A stretch of 64,000 nucleotides of DNA from Escherichia coli (GTDB lineage: Bacteria; Pseudomonadota; Gammaproteobacteria; Enterobacterales; Enterobacteriaceae): NCBI RefSeq assembly GCF_003334405.1, contig NZ_QOWM01000005.1. The stretch is one strand, 5' to 3'. Under the pieces are notes generated by a model that did no database searches, was not told the origin of the DNA, and was given only the letters and a program-made list of their open reading frames with translations. Within the stretch, counting starts at the first letter, position 1, and every line of letters begins with the position of its first letter. Below are positions 1 to 15,777 of this stretch, one piece after another. The translations under genes were made by a program, and so were the position numbers.

Positions 1-411
1 CATATGAGGATGAGTCTGCGTTACGGTTCCAGCTTCAATACCGGCATCGCGAATAATGCGATAGGCCTGCTGGCGAGAAAGCCGACTCCCGCGGCGAGAA
101 ATAAATATAGCGTCGGTCCGGTCAGCGCCTTTCCAGTTAGCACGTTCCTGGGTCCAGCGTTCCACGGCTTCACGCTCATCAAAACGTAACGGGTGAACGG
201 TAGAAAATCCGTTCTTCAGTCGGCGAATATTTATTCGACCTTCATTAAGGTCAAGGTCCTGATAATGCAGATCAAGCAGTTCACTAATACGCATCCCATG
301 CCGATATGCCAACAGAATAAGACAATAATCTCTGGCTCCCGTTGCCCCGTAACAAACCGCCTGCATCATGGCCTGAACTTCTTTACCGGTAAGATAACGA
401 CGTTTACTCAC
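1..411 (-). CDS. fimE: Type 1 fimbriae regulatory recombinase FimE, N-terminal part only (gene runs off the window start)
   Basis: Minus-strand frame from GTG at 409-411 reads VSKRRYLTGKEVQAMMQAV..., matching the recalled FimE N-terminus; lies about 476 bp downstream of fimB as in K-12; no stop before position 1. Confidence 0.85.
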   Translation of the reverse strand, partial: MSKRRYLTGKEVQAMMQAVCYGATGARDYCLILLAYRHGMRISELLDLHYQDLDLNEGRINIRRLKNGFSTVHPLRFDEREAVERWTQERANWKGADRTDAIFISRRGSRLSRQQAYRIIRDAGIEAGTVTQTHPHM

Positions 412-887
412 AATAGTAGTACTCCTGACTGAGATATATTTGAATGAATACCTATAGGAAACCTCAATCGGTCAAAATTAGCCCAATAGATAAAAAGATA
501 ACCACACACGAAGTGATGTGGCTATCAGTCAATTACATTAAATATCATACAAAAATAAAATATCACTGATGTGATAACATCTATTTTCATTGATTTGATT
601 CAATATAACAATAGATTGCAGTGGATTAACTTCCAGTTGCTTAAAAAATAAAGAAAAAATGTGAAAACAGATGAATTTAAGTGATGTGTAAATTTATGAA
701 TGATTTTGTTTATTTATTTTGAAGAACATAAACCATTGTATTTTGTATGGATATGGTTAACTTAATGTTTATTATTATAATTAAGAATCACACTTACAAT
801 AACATCAATTAATAAATGGTTAATCATTTTTGATATATCGTAAGAATAATGTAGTTTTTAACACCATCCCTGGTATCTCAACTATCT

Positions 888-1490
888 CTATAAAACAGCG
901 TGACGCTGTCGTCCTCTGGCCCTATCCCAGATGCCGTAAAAACGCCCTGCATTGCTGGCGGTATACCAGACAGTATGACGAATATTGCGATGCCCAAGAT
1001 AATCCTGGATAAGTCGCGTATCTATTCCCATATTCGCCAAAGCAAAACCACACGAATGGCGTAACATGTGCGGATGAATCTCCAGTGACAACCCGGCATT
1101 ACCACCGGAAGTCGAGATAATATGGTAAAACTGTTGCCGAGAAAGCGGATTCCCCTTACGCGATAAAAATACCCATTCGCTCTCAGCATGCGGGTACGAA
1201 GTACGGATACTCAACCAGTTTTTTAAAGCCTGAACTTCTTTGTTCAATAGCGGGTGCGTTGTTGAAAAGCCTTTTTTTAATCGATGGATATAGATACACT
1301 TTGCCTTAAGATCAATATCCGAAATCCTCAATCGACAAATTTCACTCGCCCGGAAACCATGAATAAAACAAAGCAAAGTCAGACAATAATTACGTGCTGC
1401 ATGAGGCCCGGTATTTGCTGCTTTAAGGAGTGATTCGATTTCACTATGGGTCAGGAAGTTCCTTTTTTTGTTATCAGCCTTATTCTTCAT
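888..1490 (-). CDS. fimB: Type 1 fimbriae regulatory tyrosine recombinase FimB
   Basis: 200-aa ORF MKNKADNKKRNFLTHSEIESLL...HPHMLRHSCGFALANMGIDTRLIQDYLGHRNIRHTVWYTA with the tyrosine recombinase C-terminal motif; matches recalled FimB. Confidence 0.9.
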   Translation of the reverse strand: MKNKADNKKRNFLTHSEIESLLKAANTGPHAARNYCLTLLCFIHGFRASEICRLRISDIDLKAKCIYIHRLKKGFSTTHPLLNKEVQALKNWLSIRTSYPHAESEWVFLSRKGNPLSRQQFYHIISTSGGNAGLSLEIHPHMLRHSCGFALANMGIDTRLIQDYLGHRNIRHTVWYTASNAGRFYGIWDRARGRQRHAVL

Positions 1491-2503
1491 CGTTTTCCCT
1501 TATAATTACAGACGCGCACTAGCTGTGCTGGGTTAGCAATAATCCAACATTTTAATCCTGATTATGTTTATAAAAGCGAACGTTTGCTTAATAACTAACG
1601 TAAGTGGACCAGTTCTTCTGAGTGAACTTAAATGGAGTAGCGATAGTTACTTATAATAACTTTGCCATACAAACGCCATGCTCTTGCATGCTATGTACCT
1701 TTATATATTTATAAATCTGATACGAATCGAATAATAACCCTCATCATTAATGCAACTAATCTTATCTATATATCATGTGATATGTTCTGTAACAAGTAAA
1801 ATCAACATAAAAAATTCAGCAAAATTTAATATTCGTTCAACTAGCCGTCTCACATATGACATTATTAGTCAACTGCATTTGCCACAAAATGGCTATTTCA
1901 TGGAACGCAGTAATTTCTTAGTGGCTATTATCATGCTAATTCTTAGATCCCTAGCGATTATTCCTGCCTGGTTCGTCAGCTTAGGCCATGAGATTGTTAC
2001 ATTCCCTTTTATCCTGGAGATATGGGGGAACGCAGGCGACGCTTTTTCATCTACATCCGTTGGTAACTATGGCTTTGGTCACTACGACTTAAACCTTCCT
2101 CAATCACAGCTATTCGCCGGGCGATACGGCAAACAAACTAAGTGAAACATCATCCTGAAAACACCAACATCAACAAGCCTCTCCAGATCGACATCAGGAG
2201 TGACCAGTTACAAGCCACAAACCAAGAAACATATTTCATGATGAGAATTATACTCAGCCTGATGGCGGGTAAACACTTATTTTCACCAAGCTCACTGAGT
2301 TAGCTTGCAAAGCTTTCTTTGTTTAGATTCTAAATAAATTATTTACAAAACAGATTGTTAAAAGAAAACCTTTAGTTTTTGAAGACCAATGCAAGTGTTC
2401 GTCTGGCTTCACATGGCATCTGCTTCTTAGGAAAAGATCGACATATTTTGTGACACGAATTGCAAATCTGGTTTTGTTGTATGGATTGCGTGATTTTTGA
2501 TCT

Positions 2504-2523
2504 GGTATAACAGGTATAAAGGT
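2504..2523. promoter_or_regulatory. Putative NanR operator (tandem GGTATA repeats) upstream of nanC
   Basis: GGTATAACAGGTATAAAGGT about 420 bp upstream of the nanC start; GGTATA repeats are the recalled NanR recognition element. Confidence 0.45.
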
Positions 2524-2943
2524 GCACCGCGATAGTCAATGAGACTGGGCATCTCGTAATCTATGGCAAACATCACTTCAGTTCTTTCTCATCGGGTGAT
2601 GAAAACGCACTTCAGTCTGAAAGGAATATGAAAATGAGATCAACAGACACTCTATTTTATGACTCTGGGTAAAATGGATTGAGTAAGCGATATAGCTTAC
2701 GAAAATTCAAATCAATTAAACATCAGCAGAGATTTTATACTCAGGTATTTAATCTGGCCCTCTGTTTATTTAAATAATGTGGAAAGAGATTTTTCACAGG
2801 AGATATTATACAAAAAATATAAAATACAGCTACCGGTTGCCAAAGACACTATAAGCCTGGCAAAAAAATATTACACAACATAAATGCTAATTGTTTATGC
2901 GGGCTTTGTATTGCTTTCTGTATCCTACAAATGAGTGAAATTT

Positions 2944-3660
2944 ATGAAAAAGGCTAAAATACTTTCTAGCGTATTATTACTGTGCTTTTCGTCCCCATTA
3001 ATTTCTCAGGCTGCGACACTGGACGTACGTGGTGGATATCGTAGTGGAAGCCACGCCTATGAGACTCGACTCAAAGTCAGTGAGGGATGGCAAAATGGAT
3101 GGTGGGCAAGCATGGAAAGTAATACCTGGAATACCATTCATGATAATAAAAAGGAAAATGCCGCACTCAATGATGTTCAGGTTGAAGTTAATTACGCGAT
3201 TAAACTTGATGATCAATGGACGGTGCGCCCGGGAATGTTAACGCATTTTAGCAGCAATGGCACACGCTACGGACCCTACGTAAAACTGTCCTGGGACGCG
3301 ACAAAAGATCTTAATTTTGGCATTCGCTATCGTTACGACTGGAAAGCTTACCGACAACAAGACTTATCTGGTGATATGTCTCGTGATAACGTTCATCGTT
3401 GGGATGGATATGTCACTTACCATATTAATAGTGATTTCACCTTCGCATGGCAAACGACGCTATACAGTAAACAGAACGATTATCGCTATGCAAACCATAA
3501 GAAATGGGCGACGGAAAATGCATTTGTTCTACAATACCATATGACGCCCGATATTACGCCATACATAGAATATGACTACCTTGACCGTCAGGGTGTTTAC
3601 AACGGCAGAGATAATTTATCGGAAAACAGTTATCGCATTGGTGTGTCATTTAAACTGTAG
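2944..3660 (+). CDS. nanC: N-acetylneuraminic acid outer membrane channel NanC (KdgM family porin)
   Basis: ORF with signal peptide MKKAKILSSVLLLCFSSPLISQA and beta-barrel-like sequence ending in F/L; ATG at 2944 preferred over the upstream GTG of the ORF track. Confidence 0.85.
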   Translation: MKKAKILSSVLLLCFSSPLISQAATLDVRGGYRSGSHAYETRLKVSEGWQNGWWASMESNTWNTIHDNKKENAALNDVQVEVNYAIKLDDQWTVRPGMLTHFSSNGTRYGPYVKLSWDATKDLNFGIRYRYDWKAYRQQDLSGDMSRDNVHRWDGYVTYHINSDFTFAWQTTLYSKQNDYRYANHKKWATENAFVLQYHMTPDITPYIEYDYLDRQGVYNGRDNLSENSYRIGVSFKL

Positions 3661-3679
3661 TAGACAGGAGACAGTCACA

Positions 3680-4786
3680 ATGAATAAAACAATAACGGCG
3701 CTTACTATCATAATGGCTTCATTTGCCGCAAACGCGTCTGTATTACCGGAAACTCCTGTGCCATTTAAAAGTGGTACCGGAGCAATTGATAACGACACTG
3801 TCTACATTGGTTTAGGTAGCGCAGGTACGGCATGGTACAAGCTGGATACACAGGCCAAAGATAAAAGATGGACAGCGTTAGCTGCATTCCCTGGCGGACC
3901 GAGAGATCAAGCAACCTCTGCATTTATTGATGGCAATCTGTATGTGTTTGGCGGCATTGGCAAAAACAGCGAGGGCTTGACTCAGGTATTTAATGACGTA
4001 CACAAATACAACCCCAAAACCAATAGCTGGGTTAAATTGATGTCGCACGCGCCGATGGGCATGGCGGGCCATGTGACTTTTGTACACAACGGCAAGGCTT
4101 ATGTTACTGGCGGTGTTAACCAGAATATCTTCAATGGCTATTTTGAAGATCTCAACGAAGCTGGAAAAGATTCAACCGCTATAGATAAAATCAACGCCTA
4201 CTATTTTGACAAAAAAGCAGAAGATTATTTCTTCAATAAGTTTCTGTTGTCTTTTGATCCCTCAACACAGCAATGGAGTTACGCTGGCGAATCTCCCTGG
4301 TACGGAACGGCTGGTGCGGCGGTTGTGAATAAAGGTGATAAAACCTGGCTTATTAATGGCGAAGCCAAACCAGGATTGCGAACGGATGCCGTATTTGAAC
4401 TTGACTTCACCGGTGATAATTTAAAATGGAATAAGCTTGATCCCGTCTCATCACCAGATGGCGTCGCTGGCGGTTTTGCGGGGATAAGCAATGATTCTCT
4501 TATATTTGCTGGAGGGGCCGGATTCAAAGGTTCACGAGAAAATTACCAGAACGGTAAGAACTATGCGCATGAAGGCCTGAAAAAATCATATAGCGTTGAT
4601 ATTCATCTTTGGTATAACGGGAAATGGGATAAATCGGGTGAATTATCGCAAGGTCGGGCCTACGGAGTATCATTGCCCTGGAATAATAGTTTATTAATTA
4701 TTGGCGGTGAAACTGCAGGCGGCAAAGCAGTGATGGATTCAGTTTTAATTTCTGTGAAGGATAATAAAGTCACAGTACAAAACTAA
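3680..4786 (+). CDS. nanM: N-acetylneuraminate mutarotase NanM (kelch-repeat beta-propeller, secreted)
   Basis: ATG at 3680 preceded by AGGAG at 3667-3671; signal peptide MNKTITALTIIMASFAANA; repeated GG/W kelch-like motifs; matches recalled YjhT/NanM. Confidence 0.85.
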   Translation: MNKTITALTIIMASFAANASVLPETPVPFKSGTGAIDNDTVYIGLGSAGTAWYKLDTQAKDKRWTALAAFPGGPRDQATSAFIDGNLYVFGGIGKNSEGLTQVFNDVHKYNPKTNSWVKLMSHAPMGMAGHVTFVHNGKAYVTGGVNQNIFNGYFEDLNEAGKDSTAIDKINAYYFDKKAEDYFFNKFLLSFDPSTQQWSYAGESPWYGTAGAAVVNKGDKTWLINGEAKPGLRTDAVFELDFTGDNLKWNKLDPVSSPDGVAGGFAGISNDSLIFAGGAGFKGSRENYQNGKNYAHEGLKKSYSVDIHLWYNGKWDKSGELSQGRAYGVSLPWNNSLLIIGGETAGGKAVMDSVLISVKDNKVTVQN

Positions 4787-4850
4787 CGCTTCAGGGCCCC
4801 GGTAAAGGGGCCCTGCTATCAATTTGTCATTTCAATTACGCGAAATTTAT

Positions 4851-5831
4851 ATGAACGCAATAATATCGCCTGATTATTACTATATTCTTACCGTTGCTGG
4901 TCAGTCTAATGCCATGGCGTATGGCGAAGGACTGCCATTACCGGACAGGGAAGATGCGCCTCATCCCAGAATTAAACAATTAGCGAGATTTGCGCATACG
5001 CATCCCGGAGGCCCGTCATGTCACTTTAACGACATTATTCCACTGACTCACTGCCCACACGATGTTCAGGATATGCAGGGTTATCACCATCCTCTGGCAA
5101 CGAATCATCAAACACAGTACGGCACCGTTGGCCAGGCACTGCATATAGCACGGAAATTACTGCCCTTTATTCCTGATAATGCAGGGGTTCTCATCGTTCC
5201 GTGTTGCCGTGGCGGATCGGCTTTTACCGCGGGCAGCGAAGGAACATATTCAGAACGGCACGGAGCCAGCCATGATGCTTGTCGTTGGGGAACGGATACT
5301 CCGCTATACCAGGATTTAGTCAGCAGAACGCGAGCCGCACTGGCAAAAAATCCGCATAACAAATTCCTCGGCGTATGCTGGATGCAAGGCGAATTTGACT
5401 TAATGACCAGTGACTACGCGTCACACCCTCAACACTTTAATCATATGGTTGAAGCCTTTCGTAGGGATCTAAAACAATACCATTCTCAGCTTAATAATAT
5501 TACTGACGCACCGTGGTTTTGCGGCGATACCACCTGGTACTGGAAAGAAAATTTCCCTCATGCGTATGAAGTTATTTATGGCAATTATCAAAATAATGTT
5601 TTAGCCAATATTATTTTCGTCGACTTCCAGCAACAAGGTGAAAGAGGACTGACGAACGCGCCTGATGAAGACCCGGACGATTTAAGCACGGGATATTACG
5701 GTTCAGCGTACCGGTCACCGGAGAACTGGACGACGGCACTGCGAAGCAGTCATTTCAGCACGGCAGCCCGTCGGGGGATTATTTCTGACAAGTTTGTAGA
5801 AGCAATTTTGCAGTTTTGGCGCGAAAGGTGA
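4851..5831 (+). CDS. nanS: 9-O-acetyl-N-acetylneuraminate esterase NanS
   Basis: ORF from ATG 4851 (MNAIISPDYYYILTVAGQSNAMAYGEG...) with the GQSN esterase motif; third gene of the nanCMS operon order. Confidence 0.85.
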   Translation: MNAIISPDYYYILTVAGQSNAMAYGEGLPLPDREDAPHPRIKQLARFAHTHPGGPSCHFNDIIPLTHCPHDVQDMQGYHHPLATNHQTQYGTVGQALHIARKLLPFIPDNAGVLIVPCCRGGSAFTAGSEGTYSERHGASHDACRWGTDTPLYQDLVSRTRAALAKNPHNKFLGVCWMQGEFDLMTSDYASHPQHFNHMVEAFRRDLKQYHSQLNNITDAPWFCGDTTWYWKENFPHAYEVIYGNYQNNVLANIIFVDFQQQGERGLTNAPDEDPDDLSTGYYGSAYRSPENWTTALRSSHFSTAARRGIISDKFVEAILQFWRER

Positions 5832-5838
5832 GCGTTCA

Positions 5839-6489
5839 TTAATTTGATTTATTCGCATCCATCAGCGCTTTTAACTGCTCCGGCGTAAACGGTGGTTTGC
5901 GTCGGTGCAACATCGCATGGCAATTAGGGTACACAGGCAGCAAATCATTAACTGGATCCAGCTGGTAATCCTCTTTAATGGCTGACAGCGGCACCAGGTG
6001 ATGCACATGGATAAAGCCTTCAGCGATATCACCATAGATCTTCACCAGATCAACACCGCATACGTTGCACTGGCATCCATGATGTTCGACCGCTTTATCT
6101 CGGGCCTTTTTATCGCGTTCATAGCGGTTTACTGTCACCTTTATCGCCGCACCTTCAAGGTATGTCTCCTGCGACGGCAACTCATCCGGGAACAGAACGT
6201 CGGCTATGGGAGCCGCAGCGGCTTTATCCAGATGAATATGAAATCCCTGCTCTATGAGTAGCTTGACACATTTAGATTTTATTCCGCCGGTGAAATCCGC
6301 AGGGGTAAATTGCGTCCCCGTCATCAATGTCGCTGCGATGCCAGCAATCGCCTTCGAGGGGTAACGTCGGCCATGATATTCAATCTCATACAACCGCGCA
6401 GGCTGGAACTGATGAGTTTCTCCCGCATCCCATAAATGGATAGCTTCGATGATATACCGCCGCGGAAGATGATCAGGGAGTTTATTCAT
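5839..6489 (-). CDS. McrA-like HNH endonuclease (candidate modification-dependent restriction enzyme)
   Basis: 216-aa ORF; C-terminal HNH motif CQCNVCG...HVHHLVPLS...NDLLPVYPNCHAMLH; N-terminal ~100 aa unassigned putative DNA-recognition domain. Confidence 0.55.
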   Translation of the reverse strand: MNKLPDHLPRRYIIEAIHLWDAGETHQFQPARLYEIEYHGRRYPSKAIAGIAATLMTGTQFTPADFTGGIKSKCVKLLIEQGFHIHLDKAAAAPIADVLFPDELPSQETYLEGAAIKVTVNRYERDKKARDKAVEHHGCQCNVCGVDLVKIYGDIAEGFIHVHHLVPLSAIKEDYQLDPVNDLLPVYPNCHAMLHRRKPPFTPEQLKALMDANKSN

Positions 6490-9297: not shown

Positions 9298-9459
9298 GAT
9301 AAAATCCTCACAGAAAATCGGTGAATGATAGTTTAACGATGACGGGTCAGCCGGCGCGCAGACCGGCTTCGGTAAAGGTGTATTCGTTGATGAGCAGGAC
9401 CTCATCCACAGCGGCGTCTGAGCTCAGCCAGTCGTACTCGTTTTCCGGGTGACGGAACA

Positions 9460-9678
9460 TCAGTTCAGGGTGACGCTCATCAGCCGGACATACGGACCAA
9501 AACTGTCCTTACGGCGTTCTGCAAACACGGCCAGCACACCGGGAATATCCTGCACTTCACGACCGGTATACGCTTCAGCACTGCCGTGCCAGCGGTATTT
9601 GCCGGTACAGAACGGAAAAAGACGGGATGCCGGATGCTGACGGTGAATACGCATGGCTTCGCCACGGGTGATGATTTT
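9460..9678 (-). CDS. YeeT/YkfH/YpjJ-family (DUF987-like) small protein
   Basis: 73-aa segment MKIITRGEAMRIHRQHPASRLFPFCTGKYRWHGSAEAYTGREVQDIPGVLAVFAERRKDSFGPYVRLMSVTLN, as recalled for CP4 prophage YeeT-like proteins. Confidence 0.6.
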   Translation of the reverse strand, partial: KIITRGEAMRIHRQHPASRLFPFCTGKYRWHGSAEAYTGREVQDIPGVLAVFAERRKDSFGPYVRLMSVTLN

Positions 9679-10149
9679 CATAGTGGGATACCTCTGAAGA
9701 CAGAAGATAAAAGTGAAAACAGGTGTGATGTGGTTGTGACGGGTTAAAGCAGACCATGTTCGGCAAAGGAGAAAACCTGGCTGCCACCGACTATCAGATG
9801 GTCCGGCACCCGGATAGCTGGAGGTACCGTCATGAGAGTTGAGCAGAATAATTTCAGGGACATGTTCTCCGTTTATCTCTCCGGCCCGCCGCAGACGCAG
9901 CATGTGTTTTGTGTATCCCCGGCGGCCCGGGTCGCGCACACGGGTCTGGCAGGCGAAGAATGGCTGAAAGCCTTCCCGCTGCAGGCTTTCCAGTACGGTG
10001 ATGGTGGGGATGTACGTATAGTTCTGGCTTCGGGACGTGTGTTTATCTTCCCCGAAAATCCCCGGCACATAGTGCATCAGTTCTTCGTGTGTCAGCGGAC
10101 GGTCACGGCGTATCTGGTTCGCATAACCAAAACGACTGGCTAGTCGCAT
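9679..10149 (-). pseudogene. Truncated DUF932-like (YfjQ-family) prophage gene, N-terminal fragment fused in frame to downstream sequence
   Basis: First ~110 aa MRLASRFGYANQIRRDRPLTHEELMHYVPGIFGEDKHTSRSQNYTYIPTITVLESLQREGFQPFFACQTRV...LLNSHDGTSSY match the recalled YfjQ-type N-terminus; the frame then becomes low-complexity and runs into the YeeT-like ORF. Confidence 0.4.
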
Positions 10150-14391: not shown

Positions 14392-15777
14392 ATGAACGAC
14401 ATCTCTTCTGACGACATCTTCCTGCTAAAACAGCGCCTGGCCGAACAGGAAGCGCTGATCCACGCCCTGCAGGAAAAGCTGAGCAACCGGGAGCGCGAAA
14501 TAGACCATCTGCAGGCGCAGCTGGATAAACTCCGCCGGATGAACTTCGGCAGTCGTTCCGAAAAAGTCTCCCGCCGTATCGCACAAATGGAAGCCGATCT
14601 GAACCGGCTTCAGAAAGAGAGCGATACGCTGACTGGTAGGGTGTATGACCCGGCAGTACAGCGTCCGTTGCGTCAGACCCGCACCCGTAAGCCGTTCCCT
14701 GAATCACTACCCCGTGACGAAAAGCGACTGTTGCCTGCGGCGCCGTGCTGCCCGAACTGCGGCGGTTCACTGAGCTATCTGGGCGAGGATACCGCCGAAC
14801 AGCTGGAGTTGATGCGTAGCGCATTCCGGGTTATCCGGACGGTACGGGAAAAACATGCCTGTACTCAGTGCGATGCCATCGTGCAGGCACCTGCACCTTC
14901 GCGGCCCATCGAGCGGGGTATCGCCGGACCGGGGCTGCTGGCCCGCGTGCTGACCTCGAAGTATGCAGAGCACACCCCGCTGTATTGCCAGTCAGAAATA
15001 TACGGCCGGCAAGGTGTGGAGCTGAGCCGTTCACTGCTGTCAGGCTGGGTGGATGCATGCTGCCGGCTGCTGTCTCCGCTGGAAGAGGCGCTTCATGGCT
15101 ATGTCATGACTGACGGCAAACTCCATGCCGATGATACCCCGGTCCAGGTACTGCTGCCGGGTAATAAGAAGACGAGGACCGGGCGGTTGTGGGCGTATGT
15201 TCGTGATGACCGCAATGCCGGGTCAGCGTTGGCACCTGCAGTGTGGTTCGCTTACAGCCCGGACAGAAAAGGCATCCATCCGCAGACTCATCTTGCTTGC
15301 TTCAGCGGTGTGCTGCAAGCGGATGCGTACGCCGGGTTCAACGAGCTGTATCGCAATGGTGGGATAACGGAAGCTGCCTGCTGGGCTCATGCCCGCCGAA
15401 AGATCCACGATGTGCACGTCCGCATCCCGTCAGCACTGACGGAAGAAGCCCTGGAGCAGATCGGTCAGTTGTACGCCATAGAGGCGGATATAAGGGGAAT
15501 GCCGGCAGAGCAGCGGCTTGCTGAACGTCAGCGAAAAACGAAACCGCTGTTGAAATCCCTGGAAAGCTGGTTGCGTGAAAAGATGAAGACCCTGTTCTTC
15601 GGCTCTGGCCATGGTGGTGAGCGGGGAGCGCTACTGTACAGCCTGATCGGGACGTGCAAACTGAATGACGTGGATCCAGAAAGCTACCTTCGCCATGTGC
15701 CTGGCGTCATAGCAGACTGGCCGGTCAACCGGGTCAGCGAACTGCTTCCGTGGCGCATAGCACTGCCAGCTGAATAA
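14392..15777 (+). CDS. IS66-family transposase TnpC, second copy (apparently full length)
   Basis: 461-aa ORF with MNFGSRSEKV, CCPNCGGSL, HADDTPVQVL, LWAYVRDDR, EAACWAHARRK motifs. Confidence 0.8.
   Translation: MNDISSDDIFLLKQRLAEQEALIHALQEKLSNREREIDHLQAQLDKLRRMNFGSRSEKVSRRIAQMEADLNRLQKESDTLTGRVYDPAVQRPLRQTRTRKPFPESLPRDEKRLLPAAPCCPNCGGSLSYLGEDTAEQLELMRSAFRVIRTVREKHACTQCDAIVQAPAPSRPIERGIAGPGLLARVLTSKYAEHTPLYCQSEIYGRQGVELSRSLLSGWVDACCRLLSPLEEALHGYVMTDGKLHADDTPVQVLLPGNKKTRTGRLWAYVRDDRNAGSALAPAVWFAYSPDRKGIHPQTHLACFSGVLQADAYAGFNELYRNGGITEAACWAHARRKIHDVHVRIPSALTEEALEQIGQLYAIEADIRGMPAEQRLAERQRKTKPLLKSLESWLREKMKTLFFGSGHGGERGALLYSLIGTCKLNDVDPESYLRHVPGVIADWPVNRVSELLPWRIALPAE

Follow-up and report, generated by a model that had tools for sequence, protein, structure and literature searches.

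The 1453-bp spacer that separates the divergent genes fimB and nanC in the Escherichia coli strain studied here is most probably (we put the probability at about 0.9) the shared control region of fimB and nanCMS. By its sequence, it is the fimB-nanC regulatory region that has already been described, present here in a non-K-12 lineage with all of the key operators intact, and everything central to it has previously been published for K-12. The direct results of this work are the presence, the position, the architecture and the population-wide conservation of the sites in the spacer. The region couples sugars of the host, namely sialic acid and GlcNAc set free in inflammation, to the decision on type 1 fimbriae, a main factor in colonisation and in urinary-tract virulence. 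The coupling of sugars to fimbriae is established for K-12, and we found that the window strain has the same machinery.

The window, i.e. the whole stretch of 64,000 nucleotides that was analysed, matches E. coli. Its positions 1491-2943, which constitute the spacer, are 100% identical to the sequence of strain 89-3156 and about 95.7-96.1% identical to that of a K-12 derivative, and the stretch was found in 5110 of 5426 complete genomes. The description of the spacer in the initial annotation, long, AT-rich and flanked by divergent fimB and nanC, was borne out: its G+C content is 36.4%, compared with 48.7% for the whole window, and PGAP places fimB on the minus strand and nanC on the plus strand. 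The K-12 fimB-nanC (yjhA) region, studied in the Blomfield, Plumbridge and Condemine laboratories, has the same flanking genes in the same orientation, and the equivalent spacer in the curated record of MG1655 is 1455 bp long; not a single feature is annotated within it in that record, and this includes the 131-aa ORF discussed below. The genes nanM and nanS are located downstream of nanC. The GTG at position 2935 reported by the ORF lister is an in-frame start upstream of the nanC ATG. The features of the region are compiled in Table 1.

Table 1. Genes, predicted regulatory sites and other features in and around the fimB-nanC spacer (positions in the window)
Feature	Position	Strand	Basis or remark
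fimB CDS (tyrosine-type DNA invertase, fim switch)	888-1490	-	PGAP on identical strain 89-3156; NCBIfam NF007370, 458 bits (cut-off 221)
5' untranslated leader of fimB, about 270 nt	1491-1760	-	start placed at 1760
131-aa ORF, judged spurious	1750-2145	+	starts 10 nt inside fimB leader; antisense to fimB promoter and SlyA/H-NS sites
fimB core promoter, TTGTTA-17 nt-TATATA	1767-1795	-	read from sequence; assignment inferred from published start site
SlyA operators OSA1 and OSA2, overlapped by H-NS2 and H-NS3	1925-1963	-	string matches to PMC3173223
NagC operator ONC2 (published 'fimB2')	2230-2252	.	22/23 bases match published site
Variable spacer between NagC sites	2253-2441	.	24.9% of columns variable, length nearly fixed
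GATC (Dam site) adjoining ONC1	2436-2439	.	sequence
NagC operator ONC1 (published 'fimB1')	2442-2464	.	exact match to published site
GATC (Dam site)	2499-2502	.	1 nt upstream of first repeat of ONR
NanR operator ONR, repeats GGTATA, GGTATA and GGTGCA spaced by aca and aa	2504-2526	+	pattern match; 8-strain alignment; nanX/nanA comparison
Candidate nanC -10 (TATAAC, 2506-2511) and start at about 2518 (+/- 10 nt), inside ONR	2506-2518	+	inferred by analogy with nanA
nanC leader, about 420-430 nt	2527-2943	+	2555-2707 homologous to K-12 nanX leader
nanC CDS (KdgM-family outer-membrane channel, N-acetylneuraminate)	2944-3660	+	PGAP; PF06178 on homologues

The initial annotation had pointed to a GGTATA repeat operator at 2504-2523, and this was confirmed. 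The string GGTATAACAGGTATAAAGGT, which lies on the plus strand, has no second match in the 64-kb window even when three mismatches are allowed, and none of 100 shuffled sequences (0/100) contained a match. It includes two exact GGTATA hexamers, beginning at 2504 and 2513 and separated by a 3-nt gap; a degenerate hexamer, GGTGCA, follows at 2521-2526 after a gap of 2 nt. When the window was scanned with the pattern GGTATAN3GGTATA, with no more than one mismatch allowed, a single match was obtained, that at 2504, against 0.22 expected. The repeats together, designated ONR, are located at -440 to -418 relative to the nanC ATG. The NanR operator is defined as three GGTATA repeats placed 2-3 nt apart, and the operons that carry it are nanATEK-yhcH, nanCMS and yjhBC (PMC3658417, PMC8012715). 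An array of the form (GGTATA)3 takes three NanR dimers, and two repeats with the right spacing suffice for high-affinity cooperative binding (PMC8012715). Because the third repeat of ONR is degenerate, its occupancy by three dimers is not assured. In a genomic SELEX study of K-12, a NanR peak was obtained in the nanC/fimB spacer, and this site was still bound with Neu5Ac present (PMC5934670).

The operator was further compared with the corresponding sequences at other promoters. K-12 and the window do not differ at any position across 2439-2528, a segment which includes ONR, and in K-12 the same 20-mer also occurs upstream of nanX (yjhB). A scan of genome contigs was carried out with the 15-mer GGTATAACAGGTATA. 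Among the matches listed, most of which are chance matches, at least nine enterobacterial loci have the 15-mer in front of an ORF, and in 9/9 the five bases that come after it agree with those in the window. In eight of these nine listed loci a 297-aa product begins about 58 nt downstream of the operator start; one representative of these products is N-acetylneuraminate lyase (nanA), with a TIGR00683 score of 529 bits (cut-off 382). The promoters of nanC, nanX and four nanA genes, the latter from Citrobacter and Enterobacter, can be aligned without any gap, in the order CRP-like box, 39 bp, (GA)TCT and operator, and the operators of nanATEK-yhcH and nanXY (yjhBC) have GATCT-GGTATAACAGGTATAAAGGT in common with that of nanC. 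In this alignment the operator does not vary over its first 20 nt. The third repeat is GGTGCA in nanC, whereas its last three bases are ATA, ATG or ACA in the others (GGTATA, GGTATG or GGTACA). The GATC beside ONR has a counterpart at the same position upstream of nanX and, in other genera, in the majority of nanA promoters, and NanR binds within 5 bp of GATC sites at nanA, nanC and yjhB (PMC5155068). [quoted passage not shown] We regard this as extremely improbable: the repeat did not arise in the shuffles, it lies in the segment identical to K-12, it is invariant in the eight aligned strains and conserved in 4944 genomes, two repeats are enough for high-affinity cooperative binding (PMC8012715), and functional nanA promoters also vary in the third repeat (GGTATG, GGTACA). 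All that a plasmid search yielded were chromosomal pieces under wrong labels and, in one Salmonella plasmid record, a match to the bare operator; these were rejected. Upstream of a NanC homologue from Aeromonas-like contigs no GGTATA repeat was found. In the case of a 63%-identical NanC homologue, the operator precedes an MFS-nanC-nanM operon and there is no long leader.

Control by NagC from this region, as put forward in the initial annotation, is likewise consistent with the sequence. Two NagC sites are published for the region, fimB1 (TGCAATTCGTGTCACAAAATATG) and fimB2 (CATAATTCTCATCATGAAATATG) (PMC3098098 Table 1). The former is matched exactly by ONC1; ONC2 departs from the latter only at its last base (2252), which is A instead of G. 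The distance between the two sites from start to start is 212 bp, and, of 59 sampled genomes, 55 have a span from ONC2 to ONC1 of 235 bp and the remaining four one of 234 bp. A NagC matrix was built from eight sites other than those of fim and used to scan 63,978 positions of the window. ONC2 ranked first, with 19.5 bits, a score reached in 0/500 shuffles; ONC1 ranked fifth, with 11.9 bits, and is weak when taken alone, as 20% of shuffles reach this score. The operon fimB is among those needing two NagC sites (PMC5401889), and the GATC by ONC1 is protected by NagC, as summarised in PMC11316696.

A CRP-like box, TGTGACACGAATTGCA, with two mismatches to the consensus, was found at 2449-2464, where it overlaps ONC1. 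The distance from this box to the operator is the same as that in the nanX and nanA promoters. Protection by NagC of the GATC adjoining ONC1 was reportedly observed by Sohanpal in 2004, and NagC at both sites is said, from the work of Sohanpal et al. in 2004 and 2007, to act with IHF bound between them. Near the midpoint between the NagC sites, at 2333-2345, the sequence AATAAATTATTTA matches an IHF-consensus-like pattern with one mismatch. The pattern, WATCAANNNNTTR, has 78 matches in the window where 67.6 are expected, and the segment 2333-2345 has variable columns; since the pattern occurs at chance frequency, we do not take this match as evidence.

To place these sites relative to fimB, we made use of the position of the SlyA operator OSA2, which was reported by McVicker in 2011 to be at -194 to -183 relative to the fimB start (PMC3173223). 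Combined with the position of OSA2 in the window, this would place the start of fimB at minus-strand position 1760; ONC2 and ONR would therefore be located at -470 to -492 and -744 to -766, respectively. The computed range of -766 to -470 agrees with the published location of the NanR and NagC operators, about 760 to 470 bp upstream of fimB (PMC3173223). The -10 hexamer of the predicted fimB promoter ends 6 nt before 1760. In the eight-strain alignment the core promoter has no variable column (0/40), nor is there any in the block 1730-1833. OSA1 (1928-1939), H-NS2 (1925-1934) and H-NS3 (1954-1963) are exact matches to the strings given in PMC3173223. OSA2 (1943-1954) has one change from K-12, A for G at 1947; the resulting variant, CTAGGGATCTAA, is confined to the window strain among nine strains and creates a GATC at 1946-1949.

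The 131-aa ORF, which overlaps the fimB promoter, was considered probably spurious in the initial annotation, and we came to the same judgement. Its frame is interrupted by stops or frameshifts in five of the eight strains (K-12, O157:H7, O39:H21, TK3046 and F5656C1), in each case in the second half, and is intact in the other three, one of which has an in-frame 12-bp insertion. Searches of Pfam and NCBIfam with the product gave no match. A search of 1.84 billion representatives returned high-identity fragments of the same ORF and three repeat-inflated matches, and nothing else; the named database copies are all designated 'hypothetical protein' and come from E. coli or Shigella. The variable sites are distributed over the three codon positions as 9/14/19, which is not a significant periodicity. 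A resemblance of the last 40 residues to P0048 (E = 4e-11) was rejected. The total score is inflated because six near-identical repeats are summed, and the best stretch scores 36.6 bits over 39 residues, a chance-level value that would be expected hundreds of times in the searched library.

Several observations could nevertheless be cited for a real gene which, in the intact lineages at least, would encode a small membrane protein, in which case the spacer would be partly coding. Besides the three intact frames, these are the occasional annotation by PGAP of the inner 81 aa (WP_001328298.1), the occurrence of the exact 131-aa sequence on at least 1000 contigs, a hydrophobic central stretch, and a mild third-position excess (1/4/8) in one pairwise comparison. 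Such a gene is very unlikely, given the five broken frames, the lack of a Pfam or NCBIfam match, the restriction of credible matches to fragments of the same ORF and of named copies to E. coli and Shigella, and its absence from the MG1655 annotation. Moreover, the differences among intact copies are mostly non-synonymous (7/13, 11/14 and 12/20), and the N-terminal 70 codons are conserved because they coincide with the invariant DNA of the fimB promoter, the fimB leader and the SlyA/H-NS sites.

To assess the conservation of the predicted sites within the species, we aligned eight strains from different lineages and counted exact words in the approximately 5110 complete E. coli genomes that carry the region. 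Variable columns in the alignment number 0/23 in ONR, 0/23 in ONC1 and 1/23 in ONC2; the DNA that separates the two NagC operators has 47/189. Of the genomes, 4944 contain an exact word of 28 nt or longer across ONR plus its GATC, so that the repeat noted in the initial annotation is indeed conserved across strains. Words of at least 28 nt for ONC1/CRP and for the K-12 allele of ONC2 are present in 4996 and 4717 genomes, respectively, whereas a 35-mer chosen as a control from the DNA that lies between ONC2 and ONC1 is found in 265. We conclude that the NanR, NagC, CRP, SlyA and H-NS-type sites are under strong purifying selection.

The DNA around ONC2 is far more variable. The stretch 1964-2229 has 18.8% variable columns and the stretch 2253-2441 has 24.9%, with several tri-allelic sites, while the third codon positions of fimB and nanC are variable at 8.5% and 6.5%, respectively, in the same eight strains; these two stretches thus vary two to three times more than the third codon positions of the flanking genes. 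In the nanC leader, 6-8% of the columns are variable, versus 25% in the spacer between the NagC sites. Over 2230-2464 the identity to the window is 91.9% for K-12 and goes down to 87.7% within the species. Near-invariant operators amid variable DNA, as well as the leader shared by nanC and nanX that is described below, bear on how fimB is activated from sites 470-770 bp away.

The nanC start was assigned by analogy with nanA. The ATG of nanA lies just 58 nt after the operator start, which means that transcription must begin in or adjoining the operator; the corresponding nanC start would be at about 2518, inside ONR, and the CRP-like box, centred at 2456.5, would then be at -61.5. A scan with the consensus promoter pattern called no promoter at the operator, and the region as a whole has four promoter-like matches, compared with 6.0 +/- 2.7 in shuffles. 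The nanC ATG is 440 nt after the operator start, and transcripts beginning at the predicted site would have a long leader. The homology between the nanC and nanX upstream sequences spans 2447-2707, extending past the operator into about 180 nt of the leader. A local alignment restricted to the leaders, with 2555-2707 of nanC, gave z = 8.6, and its score was reached by 0/500 shuffles. The nanX leader is 434 nt, similar in length to that of nanC.

The unusual length of the leader, about 420 nt, raises the alternative that most transcription of nanC comes from a second promoter nearer to the ATG, for example from TGGAAA-18-TATTAT at 2780-2809, and that the cassette 440 nt upstream of the ATG is mostly a distant element of fimB. 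The weak promoter-like match at 2780-2809 and the fact that a simple scan calls no promoter at the operator are in line with this, yet we consider it improbable. Promoter-like matches are no more frequent than in shuffles, the cassette is laid out like the nanA promoters, in which the ATG is reached within 58 nt, and nanX has the same cassette together with a 434-nt leader. In addition, induction of nanC by Neu5Ac through NanR has been reported (PMC8012715, PMC3658417). Transcription of nanC from within the operator is the reading that we prefer.

The leaders were further searched for signs of structure and coding. An Rfam search of positions 1-6000 (E <= 1) gave, besides a single irrelevant match, none for the fimB or the nanC leader. 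The folding energies are ordinary, with z = -0.71 for the nanC leader and z = +0.58 for the fimB leader, and in the comparison of the nanC and nanX leaders no covariation was detected (term +0.88), with many pairs broken in nanX. The reading of the leaders as structured RNAs was rejected on these three grounds. A mini-ORF of 12-14 codons is present in the nanC leader after an AAGGA (2628/2634-2672). The differences between nanC and nanX show no codon periodicity over it, and in nanC the frame ends after 12 codons; the nanX leader contains an ORF of 43 aa, which has no match in the protein collection. That the roughly 180 nt of leader shared by nanC (2555-2707) and nanX form an uncharacterised post-initiation control element, either a platform for a regulator or a translated mini-ORF, and, separately, that the hypervariable stretches around ONC2 are under diversifying selection which tunes fimB output between lineages, are suggestions that we consider doubtful.

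The arrangement of sites is compatible with the following model, in which the binding and the direction of regulation are taken from the K-12 literature and the identities of the sites in this strain are predicted from sequence matches. In the absence of sialic acid, NanR dimers would occupy the GGTATA repeats at 2504-2526 in a cooperative manner, and as these repeats cover the presumed -10 and start region of the CRP-dependent nanC promoter, nanCMS would be repressed. The bound NanR would also increase transcription from the fimB promoter about 750 bp away. NagC would occupy its two operators 212 bp apart, of which the one distal to fimB overlaps the nanC CRP box, and would likewise increase fimB transcription. 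Neu5Ac is expected to free NanR and GlcNAc-6-P to free NagC; with the sugars present, nanCMS would be induced, fimB expression would go down, and the fim element would switch to ON less often. The SlyA/H-NS sites near the fimB promoter would act independently.

This model fits the claim of the initial annotation that sialic acid and GlcNAc control both nanC and fimB from this region, inasmuch as predicted NanR and NagC sites are found at the published positions. In addition to the regulators considered above, bound NanR and NagC reportedly block Dam methylation of the neighbouring GATCs (Sohanpal et al., in work of 2004 and 2007), and nanC was reportedly found by Condemine et al. in 2005 to depend also on CRP, OmpR and CpxR. 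It has been published that the nan operons are under repression by NanR, which Neu5Ac releases (PMC8012715), and that, independently of SlyA, NanR and NagC each activate fimB from distant sites (PMC3173223). In one review the action of NanR on nanC and fimB has the opposite sign (PMC4797297); on this point we follow the experimenting laboratories against the review.

Within the sialoregulon, the nanC operator is the only one that also serves a divergent gene as an activating site at a distance, and the nanC promoter is the only one with a NagC site on the CRP box. With nanXY the nanC transcription unit has in common a leader of similar length, homologous over about 180 nt. The NagC systems that act by looping (nagE-nagB, chb and glmU) resemble the present region in having two 23-bp sites with a TT-N9-AA core, but the effect reported for NagC at fimB is activation, exerted from about 470-700 bp upstream, and not repression at the promoter.

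In comparison with the K-12 region, ONR, ONC1, both adjacent GATCs, OSA1, H-NS2, H-NS3 and the fimB core promoter are identical in the window, and the 212-bp spacing of the NagC sites is the same. The differences comprise the ONC2 edge (2252, A for G), OSA2 (1947, A for G, with the new GATC), many substitutions in the two variable stretches, and the 131-aa ORF, which is intact in the window and broken in K-12. The window lineage is thus marked by single-base changes inside the SlyA operator OSA2 and at the edge of ONC2.

The DNA upstream of nanC is homologous to that upstream of nanX (yjhB) in K-12, window 2447-2707 corresponding to positions 14590-14870 (minus strand) of the K-12 nanX region (L004). 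This homology is not confined to the promoter and operator but runs on through about 180 nt of the leader, and an alignment restricted to the leaders gave z = 8.6. The leader is about 430 nt in length in both genes, and the nanC leader varies from strain to strain three times less than the adjoining spacer. A mini-ORF lies in the nanC leader (see table), and the leader of nanX has an ORF of 43 aa that begins at the same ATG. A coding signal was looked for in the leader mini-ORF and none was found, and the 43-aa nanX-leader product has no entry in the protein collection that was searched.

Mini-ORF forms in the nanC leader
Feature	Sequence	Window position	Location
Mini-ORF	MKMRSTDTLFYDSG	2628-2672	nanC leader, 3' of AAGGA
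Mini-ORF, shorter form	MRSTDTLFYDSG	start 2634	nanC leader

In a relative whose NanC is 63% identical, a NanR-type operator, GGTATAACAGGTACAcaGGTATT, was observed at 2379-2401 of both L134 and L135, and the gene for an MFS transporter lies about 20 nt downstream of it. There, nanC and nanM directly follow the MFS gene and thus a long leader is lacking.

The NagC site ONC2 is flanked by two stretches, 1964-2229 and 2253-2441, in which 19-25% of columns vary among eight strains; several sites at 2353-2367 are tri-allelic. By comparison, the figure for third codon positions is 6.5-8.5% in fimB and nanC. Despite this variability, the length from one NagC site to the other is nearly constant, 55 of the 59 genomes sharing a value of 235 bp.

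Two published sites carry single-base changes in the window. The SlyA operator OSA2 reads CTAGGGATCTAA, against CTAGGGACCTAA as published, and the change, at 1947, creates a new GATC at 1946-1949; at 2252, A replaces G as the final base of ONC2. Both changes are lineage-specific: of the nine strains compared, the window strain alone has them.

The C-terminal 40 residues of the probably spurious 131-aa ORF inside the spacer (residues 88-131, window 2011-2142) are similar to the repeat unit of P0048, a 545-aa protein with six repeats (17 of 39 residues identical, 36.6 bits per repeat). We attributed this apparent kinship to chance, the score being inflated by the six repeats; it is less likely that the C-terminal end of the ORF is the remnant of an ancient coding sequence.

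Some strains carry an IS1 element at about window 1753, as in strain SX12 (L009, 1788-2500), where it lies at the end of the spacer match. The IS1-bearing locus lacks fimB along with most of the fim operon, and the nanC side of the spacer is intact with all NanR and NagC sites kept.

In strain 89-3156 (L001), nanS (9361-9927) is annotated by PGAP as a partial pseudogene. The identical DNA of the window (4851-5831) encodes an unbroken NanS of 326 aa, 98% identical to the K-12 protein, and the pseudogene call looks like an annotation artefact. Past nanS (window 5839-6489 and beyond; L001 10349-13453), the window strain has an HNH endonuclease gene, together with restriction-enzyme gene fragments and the remnant of a CbtA/YeeU-type toxin-antitoxin system; the window and strain 89-3156 diverge from about 7269 onward.
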